A stretch of 29,534 nucleotides of DNA, from contig JBGVJO010000174.1 of the NCBI GenBank assembly GCA_045129535.1, positions 1 through 29,534 on the forward strand. The letters are read 5' to 3'. The notes beneath the pieces were generated by a model. The model did not search any database, was not told the origin of the DNA, and saw nothing but the letters and a program-made list of their open reading frames with translations. This document shows positions 24,246 to 29,534 of the stretch, in pieces. Positions within the stretch are counted from its first letter, which is position 1. Each line of letters opens with the position of its first letter. The DNA is from Eubacteriales bacterium. Lineage in GTDB: Bacteria > Bacillota > Clostridia > Oscillospirales > CAG-272. A program made the position numbers and the translations under genes.

Positions 24246-25499
24246 TTACACGAAGGCACCCAACTTTTCACGCTTATTTACGCCGGTCTTATTCATCGCG
24301 TCGTACACGGCTTTTTTAACAGAATCCACGGAAATATGCAGCTGACTGCTGATCTCGGAATTGCTGAGGCCGAACGCCGCCAGGCGGGCGATCTCCCGCT
24401 CCCGAATGGTGAGAGCCCGAGACACGCTTTTGGACAGAAGCGAGTTGTGCAGCTTTGTCCAGCCCGTAAGCAAACCCCGGTGAAGCTCCTTATACCGCTT
24501 AAAGGCCTCCAGATCGGCCAAGGCAAGCCGGTCGTCCAAAAGAAAGTCCAGATTGCGGCGGTACTCTGCAAAAATGCCGAGAAATCCGTCCGGCAGGGCC
24601 AGCGCAATTGCCGCATCCACGTGAAAGGCAGCCGATTTTTCGTCGCCGCACTGATGGTATGCCGTAGCAGCCAGCAAACGGAGGTGTATTTCGGGGATGA
24701 TCTTGTGCTCTATGGAAAGCTGGGCGATCATGGGCTCTGCAATATGGGGGATGAAGCGGATCATGCCGCGTCCCGTCACGTCCACAGTTTTCACCTGATT
24801 CACCGCTCTGTCCTGGGCATAAAACAGCAGGTACTTGAGGTAAAACACCCAAGCTGCCGGATGCGCATCCGAGGGCAAGTGGCCGAACTGCCCCCGCACA
24901 AACCATTCGGGATAGTTGGAAAAATCCCGCACCGTACTGTCCACACAGGCCAGAGACAAGGACAGGATATCCCGATCCTCCTCATGCCGGCAGGGGGCCT
25001 CAAAAATATGCAGCTTTGCCTGCCGCCACAGATGGACGTCGCCGCGCCACATAGCCGCCAGCGCCAACAGCATTCCTCCCGCATTGACGGCGTAAAAGCC
25101 GGAGCGGTGATTCAAAAAGTACTGCGCGTGGGCCACAACCTGATCGATATCGCCCCGGTTGTACGCAATCTCGGCGGCAAACAGTGCCTGCGCCTCCGGA
25201 TGATCGTCCAAAGCCGCAATGCACTCCTCAGCGGATCCGGGCTTCGTGTACAGATCGGTCATGGACAAAAAAGGAGATTTGCGGGGCATGGGGAGATTGG
25301 CGGCGTTTTTCGCCTTCTCCGCCCGCGCTCTCTTGGTCCTGCCATCCGCCGGCTTGGGGGTTCCCTCGGGGATCATCCAGGATCGACCGAAGCGCACCGC
25401 ACCCGGCACGGAGCCTGCCCGGCAGAGATTCTGCACCTGACGGGGAGAGATGCCCCACGTTTCCGCCGCTTCGACGATGGGGATGTATTTTTCCTTCAT
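24246..25499 (-). CDS. Transcriptional regulator with N-terminal excisionase/MerR-like HTH and C-terminal LuxR HTH
   Basis: N-term EAAETWGISPRQVQNLCRAGSVPGAVRFGRSWMIP; C-term LTIREREIARLAAFGLSNSEISSQLHISVDSVK; helical middle; start at ATG 25499 after the RBS GAGGAA. Confidence 0.88.
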   Translation of the reverse strand: MKEKYIPIVEAAETWGISPRQVQNLCRAGSVPGAVRFGRSWMIPEGTPKPADGRTKRARAEKAKNAANLPMPRKSPFLSMTDLYTKPGSAEECIAALDDHPEAQALFAAEIAYNRGDIDQVVAHAQYFLNHRSGFYAVNAGGMLLALAAMWRGDVHLWRQAKLHIFEAPCRHEEDRDILSLSLACVDSTVRDFSNYPEWFVRGQFGHLPSDAHPAAWVFYLKYLLFYAQDRAVNQVKTVDVTGRGMIRFIPHIAEPMIAQLSIEHKIIPEIHLRLLAATAYHQCGDEKSAAFHVDAAIALALPDGFLGIFAEYRRNLDFLLDDRLALADLEAFKRYKELHRGLLTGWTKLHNSLLSKSVSRALTIREREIARLAAFGLSNSEISSQLHISVDSVKKAVYDAMNKTGVNKREKLGAFV

Positions 25500-25571: not shown

Positions 25572-25605
25572 GGGGGGGATGGGAAGTTTTTAGCGGAACA
25601 GAAAG

Positions 25606-25730
25606 AAAAATCCCCGCCGATGACTCGGCGGGGATTCGTTTATTCGGTTTTCTCTACCCTCGTGGGATAGCGGCTACTTACTTATTGCTGATAGCAGCCT
25701 GTGGTGCTATCAGCAAAAGAGGGAAATTAT
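25606..25730 (-). repeat. Cassette-boundary repeat, distal copy (att-like inverted repeat + recoded ppdK 3' end + terminator)
   Basis: Aligns along its length with 26586-26696; 25606-25636 is identical to 27256-27286; 25678-25713 translates on the minus strand as LIAPQAAISNK*. Confidence 0.85.
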
Positions 25731-25750
25731 GAATTGCAATAGAATGGAAT

Positions 25751-26515
25751 TTATTCATTTGTGATATATTCTTCCAATATGTCCATTTGATTTAAAACAG
25801 CAATAACATTTGCGTTATTTTCAAGATTAAACCCGCAATCTCTAAAAAAAGACTTGGAGGTCTTTAATCCATCAAGATTATCTTTTAGATTTTTAATATG
25901 TTGTAAAACATCACAAACTTTTTTAATTCGCCAAACTAAAAATTCAAGTTGCAGCGCATTATCAATATTAGAATTGCTTTTAATTTCTTTACGGATGCCA
26001 TCTCTTATATCTTTATATTGATTTTGGTTTACATTGTTCCAAGCAGTAATATCTGTAATTTCTTTGTTTCTACACCAAAGTAATGTGTTGTCATCTAACG
26101 GAATATGACATTCTTTAAAATCTAAGTTGATATGATTATGCAATTTATCGTTTATGCAATATATATATTTAAAACTCATATTGATGAATTTCTGCCATAC
26201 ACCATATCTCATTCCGAAATCGGTGTTAGAGCACATATTATCATGCCAAGTGTCAAAATCGTTATCCCAAGCCTCGCTAGTGATAGCTGTCAATAAACGT
26301 TTCTTGATTTTTTCAGCATTTTTAATAATAGTAGAATCACTTGGTGAGTTTTTCTTTCTAACATAAATTATGGCATCAGGCCACGCCTTGCTCAAACAAT
26401 ATTTGATTAAGTCGTTATCGCTATAAGATTTTTCACTTAATTTCTTTTGCCAAGCCTTACTAAATGTTAATTCAACAAATTGATTTTTAAGAGTTTGTTC
26501 TAACAACTGATTCAT
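25751..26515 (-). CDS. AT-rich hypothetical protein (254 aa), possible HhH-glycosylase-like fold
   Basis: RBS CGGAGG before ATG 26515 (MNQLLEQ); motif YGVWQKFINMSFKY...CHIPLDD...W...LEFLVW; base composition visibly unlike the flanking genes. Confidence 0.8.
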   Translation of the reverse strand: MNQLLEQTLKNQFVELTFSKAWQKKLSEKSYSDNDLIKYCLSKAWPDAIIYVRKKNSPSDSTIIKNAEKIKKRLLTAITSEAWDNDFDTWHDNMCSNTDFGMRYGVWQKFINMSFKYIYCINDKLHNHINLDFKECHIPLDDNTLLWCRNKEITDITAWNNVNQNQYKDIRDGIRKEIKSNSNIDNALQLEFLVWRIKKVCDVLQHIKNLKDNLDGLKTSKSFFRDCGFNLENNANVIAVLNQMDILEEYITNE

Positions 26516-26545
26516 ACTTAACCTCCGCGATAGTTTATATCTAAA

Positions 26546-26574
26546 ATTATATGAGCCTTTTATCCAAAAGTAAA
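26546..26574 (-). promoter_or_regulatory. Cassette-internal sigma-A promoter
   Basis: TTTACT-17 nt-TATAAT, starting just after the upstream repeat's terminator. Confidence 0.6.
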
Positions 26575-26585
26575 GTAATTTAGAC

Positions 26586-26696
26586 AAAAATCCCTCTGCC
26601 GATGACTCGGCGGGGATTCATTATTCGGTTTTCTCTACCCTTGTGGGATAGCGGTACTACCACTTATTTGTTGCTATCATAAAAGAGGGAAATTAT
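26586..26696 (-). repeat. Cassette-boundary repeat, middle copy (lacks one arm and the spacer of the inverted repeat)
   Basis: Shares AAAAGAGGGAAATTAT, TTATTCGGTTTTCTCTACCC..GTGGGATAGCGG and the terminator hairpin with 25606-25730; the stop codon of the upstream gene is the TAA that begins the repeat. Confidence 0.85.
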
Positions 26697-27121
26697 AGCA
26701 GTTGCATCCCGCTTGCTTTTTCAAGGTTAGTTGCAAAATTAAATATTTCATTTTCGGGGTTATTAAAATCCACGGCTATCTCACAGGTTAATAAATACCA
26801 TTTGCCAATTCCGTCGATTAAACTATATGTTTCGCCGCAAAAGCAATTTGTGAGCATGGCATCAGTCAATTCACAAGCAGCAAGATGTTCCCAACTTAAA
26901 GGCAAAAACCGAGTTGAAACAAAGCCGCCTATGTTTTTTATCAAATCGATTGTATCTCTATCAATTTTTTCGTTGGACGAACACTGTGAAATCGCCGTAA
27001 AGGTTTCTTTGAAGATTTCACAAAAAGATTCGCTATCAAATTTTTTGTTCTGTGATACTTCTTTTGTAAATTCCCACCATTGTAGCGGTAAAATATCTGT
27101 TATTAAAAAATCTTCAACCAT
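26693..27121 (-). CDS. AT-rich hypothetical protein (142 aa)
   Basis: RBS GGAGGT before ATG 27121 (MVEDFLI); acidic, helical-looking; no family recognised. Confidence 0.72.
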   Translation of the reverse strand: MVEDFLITDILPLQWWEFTKEVSQNKKFDSESFCEIFKETFTAISQCSSNEKIDRDTIDLIKNIGGFVSTRFLPLSWEHLAACELTDAMLTNCFCGETYSLIDGIGKWYLLTCEIAVDFNNPENEIFNFATNLEKASGMQLL

Positions 27122-27255
27122 ATATACCTCCAAAATTTTGTTTTCACTTGTATTATACACTACCACATGTCCTAAAATTGGTACAAGACAATCCATATTA
27201 TTATATTTTGTATATTTCGCCTCAAAATGTCAACTGTTTTTCTAAAAGCACATAC

Positions 27256-27286
27256 AAAAATCCCCGCCGATGACTCGGCGGGGATT
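27256..27286 (-). terminator. ppdK intrinsic terminator
   Basis: Minus strand AATCCCCGCCGA-gtca-TCGGCGGGGATT followed by TTTT, 22 nt after the ppdK stop. Confidence 0.88.
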
Positions 27287-27308
27287 GGTTTGTTTATTCA
27301 GTTTGCAA

Positions 27309-29534
27309 TCACTTGTTGGAAATAGCAGCCTGAGCAGCAGCCAGACGAGCGATCGGCACACGGAAGGGAGAGCAGGATACATAGTCAAGACCGATCTTGT
27401 GGCAGAACTCAACGGAAGTCGGGTCACCACCGTGCTCACCGCAGATACCTACGTGGAGGTTGGGGTTAACGGGACGGCCCAGGGAGATTGCCATATTCAT
27501 CAGCTTGCCAACGCCAACCTGGTCCAGCTTAGCGAAGGGATCGTTCTCGAAGATCTTGGTCTCATAGTATGCTTCCAGGAACTTGCCGGCGTCATCACGG
27601 GAGAAGCCGTAAGTCATCTGGGTCAGGTCATTGGTACCGAAGCAGAAGAAGTCTGCGTTTGCAGCGATCTCGTCAGCGGTCAGGCATGCGCGAGGAATCT
27701 CGATCATGGTACCAACTTCGTATGCGAGCTCAACGCCTGCAGCAGCGATCTCAGCGTCAGCAGTCTCAACGACTACCTTCTTAACGAACTTCAATTCCTT
27801 AACGTCGCCTACCAGAGGAATCATGATCTCGGGCTTAACGTTCCAGTCAGCGTGAGCCTTCTTAACGTTGATAGCAGCGCGGATAACGGCTGCGGTCTGC
27901 ATCTTGGCAATTTCGGGATAGGTTACTGCCAGACGGCATCCACGGTGACCCATCATGGGGTTGAACTCGTGGAGGGAAGCGATGATGGCCTTGATGGTCT
28001 CAACGGACTTGCCCTGTGCCTTAGCCAGTGCAGCGATGTCAGCTTCCTCAGTGGGAACGAACTCGTGCAGCGGGGGATCCAGGAAACGGATGCAAACGGG
28101 AGTGCCCTCGAGAGCCTCGTACAGAGCCTCGAAGTCAGCCTGCTGCATGGGCAGGATCTTAGCCAGAGCCACTTCGCGCTCAGCTACGGTCTCGGAGCAG
28201 ATCATTTCGCGGAACGCGTCGATTCTGCCCTCGCCGAAGAACATGTGCTCGGTACGGCAGAGGCCGATACCCTCGGCGCCCAGCTCGCGAGCCTTCTTAG
28301 CATCGGTGGGAGTATCTGCATTGGTGCGAACCTTCAGGGTACGGAACTTGTCAGCCCAACCCATGATGGTACCGAAGTTGCCGGAGATCTCAGCGTCAAC
28401 GGTAGCGATGATGCCGTCGTAGATCTTACCGGTGGAACCGTCGATGGAGATGAAGTCGCCCTCGTGGTAGGTCTTGCCTGCCAGCTCGAACTTCTTGTTC
28501 TCCTCATCCATCTTGATCTCGCCGCAACCGGAAACGCAGCACTTACCCATACCACGGGCAACAACGGCTGCGTGGGAGGTCATACCGCCGCGAACGGTCA
28601 GAATACCCTGAGCGGCCTTCATACCCTCGATATCCTCGGGGGAAGTCTCAAGACGAACCAGAACTACCTTCTCGCCCTTAGCAGCCCATTCCTTAGCGTC
28701 TTCTGCGGAGAATACAACCTTACCGCAAGCAGCGCCGGGAGATGCGCCCAGACCCTTGCCGGCTACGTTGGCAGCCTTCAGAGCCTTCGCGTCGAACTGG
28801 GGATGGAGCAGAGTGTCCAGGTTACGGGGATCGATCATCAGAACAGCCTGTTCCTCAGTCTTGTGTCCCTCAGCTACGAGGTCAACAGCGATCTGGAGAG
28901 CAGCCTGTGCGGTTCTCTTACCGTTTCTGGTCTGGAGCATGTAGAGCTTCTCGTTCTCAACGGTGAACTCCATGTCCTGCATATCGTGATAGTGGTTCTC
29001 CAGGATCTGGCAAACCTCAACGAACTGCTTGTATGCTGCGGGGAACTTCTCAGCCATCTGAGCGATGGGCATGGGAGTACGAACACCTGCAACAACGTCC
29101 TCACCCTGTGCATTGGTAAGGAACTCACCCATGAGCTTCTTTTCACCGGTTGCGGGGTCACGGGTAAATGCTACGCCGGTACCGCAATCGTCGCCCATGT
29201 TACCGAATGCCATTGCCTGTACGTTAACGGCAGTACCCCAAGAGTAGGGAATGTCGTTGTCACGGCGGTATACGTTTGCACGGGGGTTGTCCCAGGAACG
29301 GAATACGGCCTTAACGGCGCCGATGAGCTGCTCCTTAGGATCGGTCGGGAAATCTGCACCGATCTTGGCCTTGTACTCAGCCTTGAACTGGTTAGCCAGC
29401 TCCTTCAGATCGTCAGCGGTCAATTCAACGTCCAGGGTAACGCCCTTTTCTTCCTTCATCTTGTCGATGAGTTCCTCGAAGTACTTCTTGCCGACTTCCA
29501 TAACAACGTCGGAGTACATCTGGATGAAGCGGCG
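27309..29534 (-). CDS. ppdK: Pyruvate, phosphate dikinase (5' part outside the window)
   Basis: RRFIQMY, SWGTAVNVQ, GTGVAFTRDP, NAQGEDVVAG, LQTRNGKRT, GGMTSHAAVVARG (phospho-His), GIGLCRTEHMF, GTNDLTQ, GICGEHGGDP; strongly biased codon usage. Confidence 0.98.
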   Translation of the reverse strand, partial: RRFIQMYSDVVMEVGKKYFEELIDKMKEEKGVTLDVELTADDLKELANQFKAEYKAKIGADFPTDPKEQLIGAVKAVFRSWDNPRANVYRRDNDIPYSWGTAVNVQAMAFGNMGDDCGTGVAFTRDPATGEKKLMGEFLTNAQGEDVVAGVRTPMPIAQMAEKFPAAYKQFVEVCQILENHYHDMQDMEFTVENEKLYMLQTRNGKRTAQAALQIAVDLVAEGHKTEEQAVLMIDPRNLDTLLHPQFDAKALKAANVAGKGLGASPGAACGKVVFSAEDAKEWAAKGEKVVLVRLETSPEDIEGMKAAQGILTVRGGMTSHAAVVARGMGKCCVSGCGEIKMDEENKKFELAGKTYHEGDFISIDGSTGKIYDGIIATVDAEISGNFGTIMGWADKFRTLKVRTNADTPTDAKKARELGAEGIGLCRTEHMFFGEGRIDAFREMICSETVAEREVALAKILPMQQADFEALYEALEGTPVCIRFLDPPLHEFVPTEEADIAALAKAQGKSVETIKAIIASLHEFNPMMGHRGCRLAVTYPEIAKMQTAAVIRAAINVKKAHADWNVKPEIMIPLVGDVKELKFVKKVVVETADAEIAAAGVELAYEVGTMIEIPRACLTADEIAANADFFCFGTNDLTQMTYGFSRDDAGKFLEAYYETKIFENDPFAKLDQVGVGKLMNMAISLGRPVNPNLHVGICGEHGGDPTSVEFCHKIGLDYVSCSPFRVPIARLAAAQAAISNK

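Follow-up and report, generated by a model that had tools for sequence, protein, structure and literature searches.

Introduction

The islands of the staphylococcal cassette chromosome (SCC) and the PvCTn-like conjugative transposons of Bacteroidota are the closest known systems to the locus described here, a tandem array of small gene cassettes situated in the last codons of ppdK, the gene for pyruvate phosphate dikinase, in an Eubacteriales bacterium (Bacillota; Clostridia; Oscillospirales; CAG-272). The stretch of DNA analyzed, hereafter termed the window, comprises positions 1 to 29,534 of contig JBGVJO010000174.1 in the metagenome-assembled genome (MAG) GCA_045129535.1; coordinates refer to its forward strand, and other genomes, contigs and loci of our dataset are denoted by G, C and L numbers. 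We propose, with a probability of roughly 65%, that positions 25678-27332 constitute a two-unit array of minimal mobile cassettes which lack a recombinase of their own and are most likely moved by the large serine recombinases (LSRs) of sister elements.

SCC and SCCmec, pseudo-SCC (psi-SCC) and composite SCC, which depend on the LSRs CcrAB and CcrC, share several traits with the ppdK array. Both are inserted in the 3′ end of a conserved housekeeping gene, the end of which is restored, both accrete in tandem with short direct repeats between elements and carry accessory and defence cargo, and in both recombinase-less members lie beside LSR-bearing ones, sometimes with two adjacent recombinase genes. 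The array is nevertheless not an SCC in the strict sense, since the target is ppdK instead of rlmH and the hosts are uncultured gut Clostridia. Moreover, its units are much smaller and in many cases amount to a single gene of 0.5-1.5 kb, each has its own terminator, promoter and nearly invariant 28-nt arm, some sister elements harbor the attachment (att) site inside the recombinase gene, and the mobilization of the units is inferred. Tandem SCC-like defence cassettes without a recombinase are mobilized by Ccr (PMC11470126), and the Enterococcus cassette chromosome is likewise among the closest known systems (PMC6222049). With regard to the target itself, PvCTn-like conjugative transposons are reported to use ppdK 3′-end codons (..A Q A A I..) as attB, with a stop codon regenerated within a few residues (PMC11005914). 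The cassettes use these codons too, whereas the PvCTn-like elements are large and conjugative, belong to another phylum and build no cassette arrays.

Integrons and clusters of attC sites lacking integron integrases (CALINs) also consist of co-oriented arrays of small, diverse and mostly single-gene cassettes ending in a recombination site, and may occur without a resident integrase. In contrast to integrons, the ppdK array has no IntI-type tyrosine recombinase, attI platform or Pc promoter, its site is a dyad of about 56 bp with conserved sequence and not a folded attC with R and L boxes, its cassettes bear terminators and promoter-like sites of their own, and docking takes place at the coding end of a gene. 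An earlier sequence-only reading of the window had called the array integron-like, which applies to the layout but not to the machinery. Another parallel comes from Streptococcus thermophilus, where a recombinase-less, att-flanked cis-mobilizable element (CIME) at the 3′ end of fda stands in tandem with the autonomous integrative and conjugative elements (ICEs) ICESt1/ICESt3 and can be mobilized in cis or in trans. The recombinase-less tandem member at the 3′ end of a glycolysis-related gene is common to both systems, while the streptococcal elements are large, employ a tyrosine integrase and do not form single-gene cassettes. Literature searches combining ppdK with serine recombinase, integrase or cassettes yielded no description of the system presented here.

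The Two ppdK Tails

The window carries ppdK on the minus strand (27309..29534, truncated at its 5′ end where the window stops; Pfam PPDK_N, PEP-utilizers and PEP-utilizers_C), and this gene is 95-97% identical to the ppdK of G012 and G011. Read on the minus strand, ppdK is followed by a recoded tail with a terminator, the low-GC orfA, a degenerate junction, the low-GC orfB, an intact junction and, finally, a displaced ppdK tail with its terminator. The real end of the gene, ...LAAAQAAISNK with stop TGA (27344-27309), and the spare end, LIAPQAAISNK with stop TAA (25713-25678), differ only synonymously in their last eight codons (ATT/ATC, TCC/AGC, AAC/AAT, TGA/TAA) and share an identical 11-nt core at 27322-27332 and 25691-25701. 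A perfect 12-8-12 inverted repeat has its arms at 25685-25696 and 25705-25716, and a 31-nt terminator occurs in two exact copies (25606-25636 and 27256-27286) and again, imperfectly, near 26594-26626. The two tails, the core, the inverted repeat and the terminator copy had already been listed in the sequence-only reading, and all of them were confirmed. The GC content falls to 27-37% over 25700-27250 compared with 52-64% in both flanks, and the 141-nt repeat unit occupies a single locus in the 1.6-Mb, 407-contig, 87%-complete MAG; taken together, these observations point to a foreign origin. A dispersed repeat of the repetitive extragenic palindrome (REP) or miniature inverted-repeat transposable element (MITE) type was ruled out by the confinement of the unit to one locus, and the scattering of the repeat that would have contradicted the sequence-only reading was thus not encountered in the MAG.

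The ppdK 3′ ends were compared across 26 related genomes. Alignments to most relatives break about 12 nt before the ppdK stop (~27321-27322), exactly where the recoded tail starts. In G012, the closest relative in our dataset (95% identical ppdK), the gene ends in the 24-nt spare end of the window, CAGGCTGCTATCAGCAATAAGTAA, with 24/24 identical positions, and continues into a spacer and a terminator like those at the distal junction of the window. In G011, the next closest relative, ppdK ends in AGCAACAAATAAGTGG, which is the tail remnant found in the middle repeat of the window. An exact match over 24 nt indicates that the resemblance of the spare tail to a ppdK end is not due to chance, and the coincidence that the sequence-only reading had allowed for is therefore refuted. 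The same reading anticipated relatives with an empty site, in which ppdK would end in ATC AGC AAT AAG TAA. This ending is indeed present in G012, but a strictly empty site with the same downstream gene was not found among the relatives: G012 is occupied by one different cassette, containing an EEP-like gene and a degraded arm, ahead of the orthologous regulator gene, in G011 the occupants include an orfB-like cassette, and the other species of the genus have no regulator behind ppdK. The junctions in G012 and in locus L105 are partly deleted. Separately, G026 was found to possess two different ppdK 3′ ends (C18 and C43; L019 and L037) with 86 nt in common, and one of the two lies at the end of a contig; either another ppdK insertion, in which a longer segment was duplicated, or an array at which the assembly broke is the probable cause.

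Spread and Borders of the Cassettes

The orfB unit ends on the right in a non-host sequence of 25 nt, TAATTTCCCTCTTTTGSTGATAGCA, which was detected without mismatch in 69 species genomes. In 68 of them, all MAGs of gut or rumen Clostridia, this 25-mer precedes SCACAGGCTGCWAT, after which come a short ppdK-like tail, its stop codon, a hairpin terminator and an AT-rich promoter, so that the arm lies before a ppdK tail at all 68 loci. Arrays of 2 to 7 are frequent, many of the loci hold 2 to 5 copies within 8 kb, and G045 exhibits six junctions and an LSR element behind ppdK. In an even, order-wide sample, the arm plus core was present with at most three mismatches in 22 of 401 genomes belonging to at least 10 families, compared with 0 for the reversed control. 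The cassette content between the conserved junctions varies among genomes, as the sequence-only reading had expected, and its proposal that the ppdK 3′ end is an integration hotspot is supported by the 68 other species genomes with the 25-mer, a ppdK tail and tandem copies. The 100%-complete genome G037 has a composite island of 47 kb or more behind the ppdK tail (C21:37375-84669; L214-L216), in which we recognized a 31-kb element with an LSR at its end, a mini-cassette of 0.5 kb bearing the 25-mer arm, and another element with an LSR that has an internal TAG.

The extent of the unit is best seen in a two-gene YbjQ cassette, mostly base-for-base identical in the alignment of four species. On the left, ...CACAG is followed by GCTGCTATCAAAG, with similarity starting from ...CACAG into GCTGCTATCAAAGAATCTAAGTAA, and the left neighbor is either ppdK or the arm of another cassette; on the right, the arm is followed by CACAGGCTGC, and the tails differ beyond. 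These borders define a unit composed of tail, terminator, promoter, gene or genes and 28-nt arm. The cargo of the window behaves in the same manner, as orfB was found at 81-88% amino-acid identity in three other species (L193, L194 and L195) with the same arm and different neighbors, the promoter region of the cassette being kept in L193 and L194 and diverged in L195. An orfA homologue of 81% identity lies between two intact arms in the metagenome contig L201. Furthermore, 114 of 123 junctions place a stop 6-9 codons after the Q in the ppdK frame (QAAIKESK, QAAIKG and others), indicating that the tails are maintained fit to finish ppdK. The recurrence of these borders across species supports the earlier description of promoter-bearing one-gene cassettes that carry a replacement tail, displace the older tail distally and build up in tandem.

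When 115 distinct junctions are compared, a stretch of high information content spans positions -28 to +12 relative to a central CA, and dyad symmetry around this dinucleotide is evident at the inner positions 2 and 4-11 and at the outer positions 22 and 24-28. The conserved site is therefore a dyad of about 56 bp with a 28-nt arm, and the 12-8-12 repeat of the window is its inner part. A 28-nt half-site with an inner and an outer motif is the usual appearance of the attP sites of phage large serine integrases. The core sites of tyrosine recombinases, such as loxP, FRT and dif, have a 6-8-bp overlap flanked by inverted arms of 7-13 bp; the window does have the 12-8-12 shape, but conservation up to -28 exceeds their arm length.

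Recombinases Linked to the Site

Our analysis revealed LSR genes positioned exactly at the ppdK crossover in more than 20 species. In G045, a 580-aa LSR is the last member of the array and its 3′ end overlaps the displaced native tail; together with seven homologues, it makes up a group of eight species in which the 580-aa LSR runs 3′ into ACAGGCTGC, the tail and the terminator. A second clade, found in six species, consists of a 283-aa and 618-aa pair (in one locus, L135:3621-4469 and L135:4469-6322). The exact cassette 25-mer lies 0.4-3.9 kb downstream of the pair, and the cargo in between varies. Both the 580-aa and the 283+618-aa LSRs contain Resolvase and Recombinase domains, and further LSR clades occur at the same crossover (L142-L147, L149, L080, L193 and G037). 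Counted by eye and without gaps, 16 of the 28 positions of the cassette arm agree with the arm that lies within the G045-type LSR gene, and the cassettes look as if they were LSR elements stripped to their last 28 nt. Among 21 array-bearing genomes, three have an LSR within 3 kb of the arm. The MAGs with L049-type LSR elements have ppdK on other contigs, and the left ends of these elements were not delimited.

Tyrosine recombinases were absent within 40 kb of the arrays in five array genomes and within 20 kb of the arm in 21 further ones, the only one on the same contig being 23 kb away, although every array-bearing genome encodes such enzymes somewhere.

In two LSR clades the att site lies inside the recombinase gene. 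One is represented by L109 (G045:C52, reverse strand), with the LSR at L109:1479-3218 and the left end of the element at ~L109:9050-9230, and the other by G037:C21, at 37375 and 66944-68640. In the integrated state, the LSR open reading frame (ORF) is 580 or 582 aa long and ends in the displaced ppdK tail. When the element ends are joined in silico, the ORFs extend to 622 or 626 aa and acquire the C-terminus (...HKW.D..V..YI) of the intact 618-aa LSRs, which suggests that integration splits off the last 42 and 44 LSR codons, respectively. Archaeal integrases of the SSV1 type are likewise encoded by genes that are split upon integration, while we know of no such example among serine recombinases.

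Logan contigs from four metagenome runs were also examined for excision or circle joints. The two-cassette layout of the window recurs in contigs from cattle, pig and manure metagenomes. The arm has 6-30 times the sequencing depth of the flanks, and the contigs diverge on both sides of it, at 25689/25690 and at 25729/25730. Depth also differs about twofold from orfA to orfB, a hint of strain variants with a single cassette. A joint recorded as "goes back 976" was considered as an excision or circle product and was rejected, as it is explained by an internal 34-nt repeat.

Organization of the Array and Its Cargo

All features of the array are located on the minus strand. The proximal, attL-like junction (27309..27332) comprises the core CAGGCTGCTAT at 27332-27322, with the central CA at 27332-27331, and the cassette-borne replacement tail (..AAISNK, stop TGA) from 27330 to 27309. 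Next comes terminator 1 of cassette A (27252..27290), a hairpin at 27286-27259 with a subsequent T run. This hairpin has exactly the sequence of the distal, native-type one, whereas the orfA cassette found elsewhere bears a different one. A promoter-like region at 27150..27233 contains TTGACA-17-CAAAAT and an extended -10 motif, TGTATAAT, at 27159-27152, and is proposed from consensus match only. Its cargo, orfA (26693..27121), encodes a protein of 142 aa, and the cassette arm opens with the TAA stop of this gene. The degenerate middle junction (26660..26695) consists of a 24-nt arm remnant, one base short, at 26695-26672, fused directly to the tail remnant ACAAATAAGTGG (26671-26660); the spacer, the crossover and the other arm have been lost with some 19 nt. 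It is followed by a genus-type spacer and terminator 2 (26586..26659), a chimera in which the left stem half is of the native type and the right half of the orfB-cassette type, the orfB-cassette copies of L193 and L194 having their own-type terminator CCCTCTGCCG..CGGCAGAGGG.

Cassette B contains a promoter-like site, TTTACT-17-TATAAT (26546..26574), followed by orfB (25751..26515), encoding 254 aa. The intact 28-nt cassette arm, or P arm, TAATTTCCCTCTTTTGCTGATAGCACCA (25702..25729), is defined by its conservation across species. At the distal junction (25678..25701), the core with the central CA at 25701-25700 precedes the displaced ppdK tail GGCTGCTATCAGCAATAAGTAA from 25699 to 25678. The last feature is the genus-type ppdK downstream spacer with terminator 3 (25600..25677; hairpin 25637-25608), which is syntenic with the terminator before the regulator gene in G012. 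With the core of the middle junction lost, orfA and orfB are now fused into one unit, and the attL-like and attR-like sites on its two sides are both good. The homogenized or chimeric terminators show that the array has been reshaped by ordinary recombination between repeated terminators. No Phage_integrase match and no recombinase of any class was detected among the ORFs of the window, in agreement with the sequence-only reading.

Directly downstream of the array, at 24246-25499 (minus strand), lies a gene for a 417-aa regulator with an N-terminal HTH_17 domain (excisionase/MerR-like) and a C-terminal LuxR/GerE helix-turn-helix. Its GC content is native and an ortholog exists in G012; the adjacency of an excisionase-like domain to the att site is probably a coincidence.

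The cassettes found elsewhere carry YbjQ, DUF4234, DUF5677, TipAS, an aldo-keto reductase, a lactate permease, ToxN and a two-methylase restriction-modification unit, and none of the 87 cargo proteins is a recombinase. No family match was obtained for orfA or orfB in Pfam, NCBIfam or PADLOC. Distant orfA homologues with 51-53% identity (L196 3001-3414 and L197 3001-3414) end a conserved four-gene row with a Tpt1/KptA-like RNA 2′-phosphotransferase. This row adjoins McrBC or GmrSD and looks like a defence-island neighborhood. The predicted structure of the orfB product is all-helical (mean predicted local distance difference test score, pLDDT, 82.6). Its comparison with 8-oxoG glycosylases by VIA-align gave Z scores of 8.6, 8.3 and 7.9, and in an exhaustive alignment AGOG/OGG-type 8-oxoguanine glycosylases ranked highest together with the related queuine salvage enzyme, DUF2419 (Z 8.6-6.9); the HhH-GPD type accounted for 11 of the 13 best matches. 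Foldseek returned no significant match for the model. The glycosylase-like fold is thus a reasonable lead more than a finding, and the predicted protein could act in defence or salvage of the base-excision type. Clustering at 90% identity divides the orfB family into 36 clusters, many of which come from contigs about 1 kb long.

Proposed Mechanism and Alternative Explanations

According to the mechanism we propose, each cassette would bring a replacement ppdK tail of a few codons and a stop, a hairpin terminator, its own promoter, one or few genes and the 28-nt arm. Recombination would take place inside the shared core CACAGGCTGC, most likely at the central CA, and each insertion would restore a working ppdK end and push the previous tail downstream. 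The likeliest movers of the cassettes are the LSRs of larger sister elements that insert at this ppdK crossover too; one of their clades ends in the cassette's own 25-mer. We infer that these enzymes act in trans on the cassettes, which may still be mobile at present. The array would then behave as an SCC-type composite island shrunk to integron-sized units. Regarding the defining traits of SCC-like islands, LSRs are encoded by the sister elements and not by the window's own cassettes, insertion into the 3′ end of one gene with the frame restored is seen at the 68 loci and in 114 of 123 tails, and tandem accretion with a repeated core, recombinase-less members included, is found in the window (two units), in G045 and in G037.

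Several observations weigh against this mechanism. Canonical LSRs recombine only attP with attB, so tandem accretion would require a relaxed specificity similar to that of Ccr. Six of the 21 array-bearing genomes, one of them 97% complete, have no LSR domain match at all, and no cognate LSR was found in the 87%-complete MAG, the only LSR of which is about 35% identical, lies on the 3.3-kb contig C145 and has no ppdK-like site. The crossover is bracketed to about 10 nt (CACAGGCTGC), which fits a 2-bp serine cut and a 6-8-bp tyrosine overlap alike. The metagenome contigs contained weak joints only and no clean circle, excision or empty-site joint. The exact arm was not found in IMG/VR viral contigs, a result that also led us to reject a phage origin. 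Finally, all three terminators of the window are native-type or chimeric, so homologous recombination also shapes the array.

Some of these points suit other explanations. The sequence-only reading regarded the site as a loxP/FRT-like target of a tyrosine recombinase, and the same array could be moved by such an enzyme acting on 8-12-bp inverted arms around an 8-bp spacer, either an Xer-like chromosomal protein or the integrase of a ppdK-targeting ICE. Conjugative transposons such as PvCTn typically carry a tyrosine integrase of their own. The perfect 12-8-12 inverted repeat, the width of the crossover bracket, the presence of tyrosine recombinases somewhere in every array-bearing genome and the six genomes without an LSR match are all compatible with this explanation. 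We nevertheless consider it unlikely, and the enzyme class first put forward probably wrong, because the arm is conserved to -28 with an outer symmetric motif and is longer than a tyrosine core site, because no tyrosine recombinase lies within 20 kb of the arm in 26 genomes, and because it is LSR genes that are physically joined to the crossover in more than 20 species.

Slightly less probable still is that no site-specific recombination operates today and that relic cassettes spread by homologous recombination or transformation through ppdK and the repeated tail-terminator homology. The state of the window terminators, the dead middle junction, the partly deleted junctions of G012 and L105, the lack of a circle or excision junction in the metagenome contigs and the many array genomes without an LSR would all be expected in that case. 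On the other hand, a non-host 28-nt arm could hardly have stayed nearly invariant in at least 10 families unless some protein recognized it. Moreover, identical cassettes with borders exactly at the core stand behind ppdK genes only 70-80% identical, so that their spread cannot have relied on long stretches of flanking homology. As a last alternative, the ppdK 3′ end and its terminator could have been duplicated locally in tandem before unrelated AT-rich genes inserted, with the peptide match as a remnant, which might account for three terminator and two tail copies within 1.7 kb. This scenario is very improbable, since the tails differ at four synonymous sites, including AGC versus TCC, unlike a recent duplication, and the occurrence of the same arm and cassettes in other species contradicts it.

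Implications

Beyond cassettes moved by sister-element LSRs at this locus, gut and rumen Clostridia may share a community-wide gene-capture platform at the ppdK stop, although we hold this wider view tentatively, at a little below even odds. Cassettes would be written in and out by the LSRs of sister elements, some LSR genes would be split by integration with the full-length enzyme produced only from the excised circle, and the whole would represent a functional counterpart of integrons, based on another enzyme class, in a phylum thought to be without them.

If the cassettes are indeed moved in trans by LSRs, abundant uncultured gut and rumen Firmicutes would have at their disposal an integron-like exchange of single accessory and defence genes, with a docking site inside a gene of an essential pathway. 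The same handful of ppdK codons serves as a landing pad in two phyla, for cassettes in Clostridia and for conjugative transposons in Bacteroidota (PMC11005914). Such an exchange would provide naturally paired recombinases and short att sites of about 56 bp for the engineering of bacteria that are hard to manipulate, and it would account for the movement of one-gene traits, among them restriction-modification systems, ToxN and glycosylase-like proteins, from one family to another.

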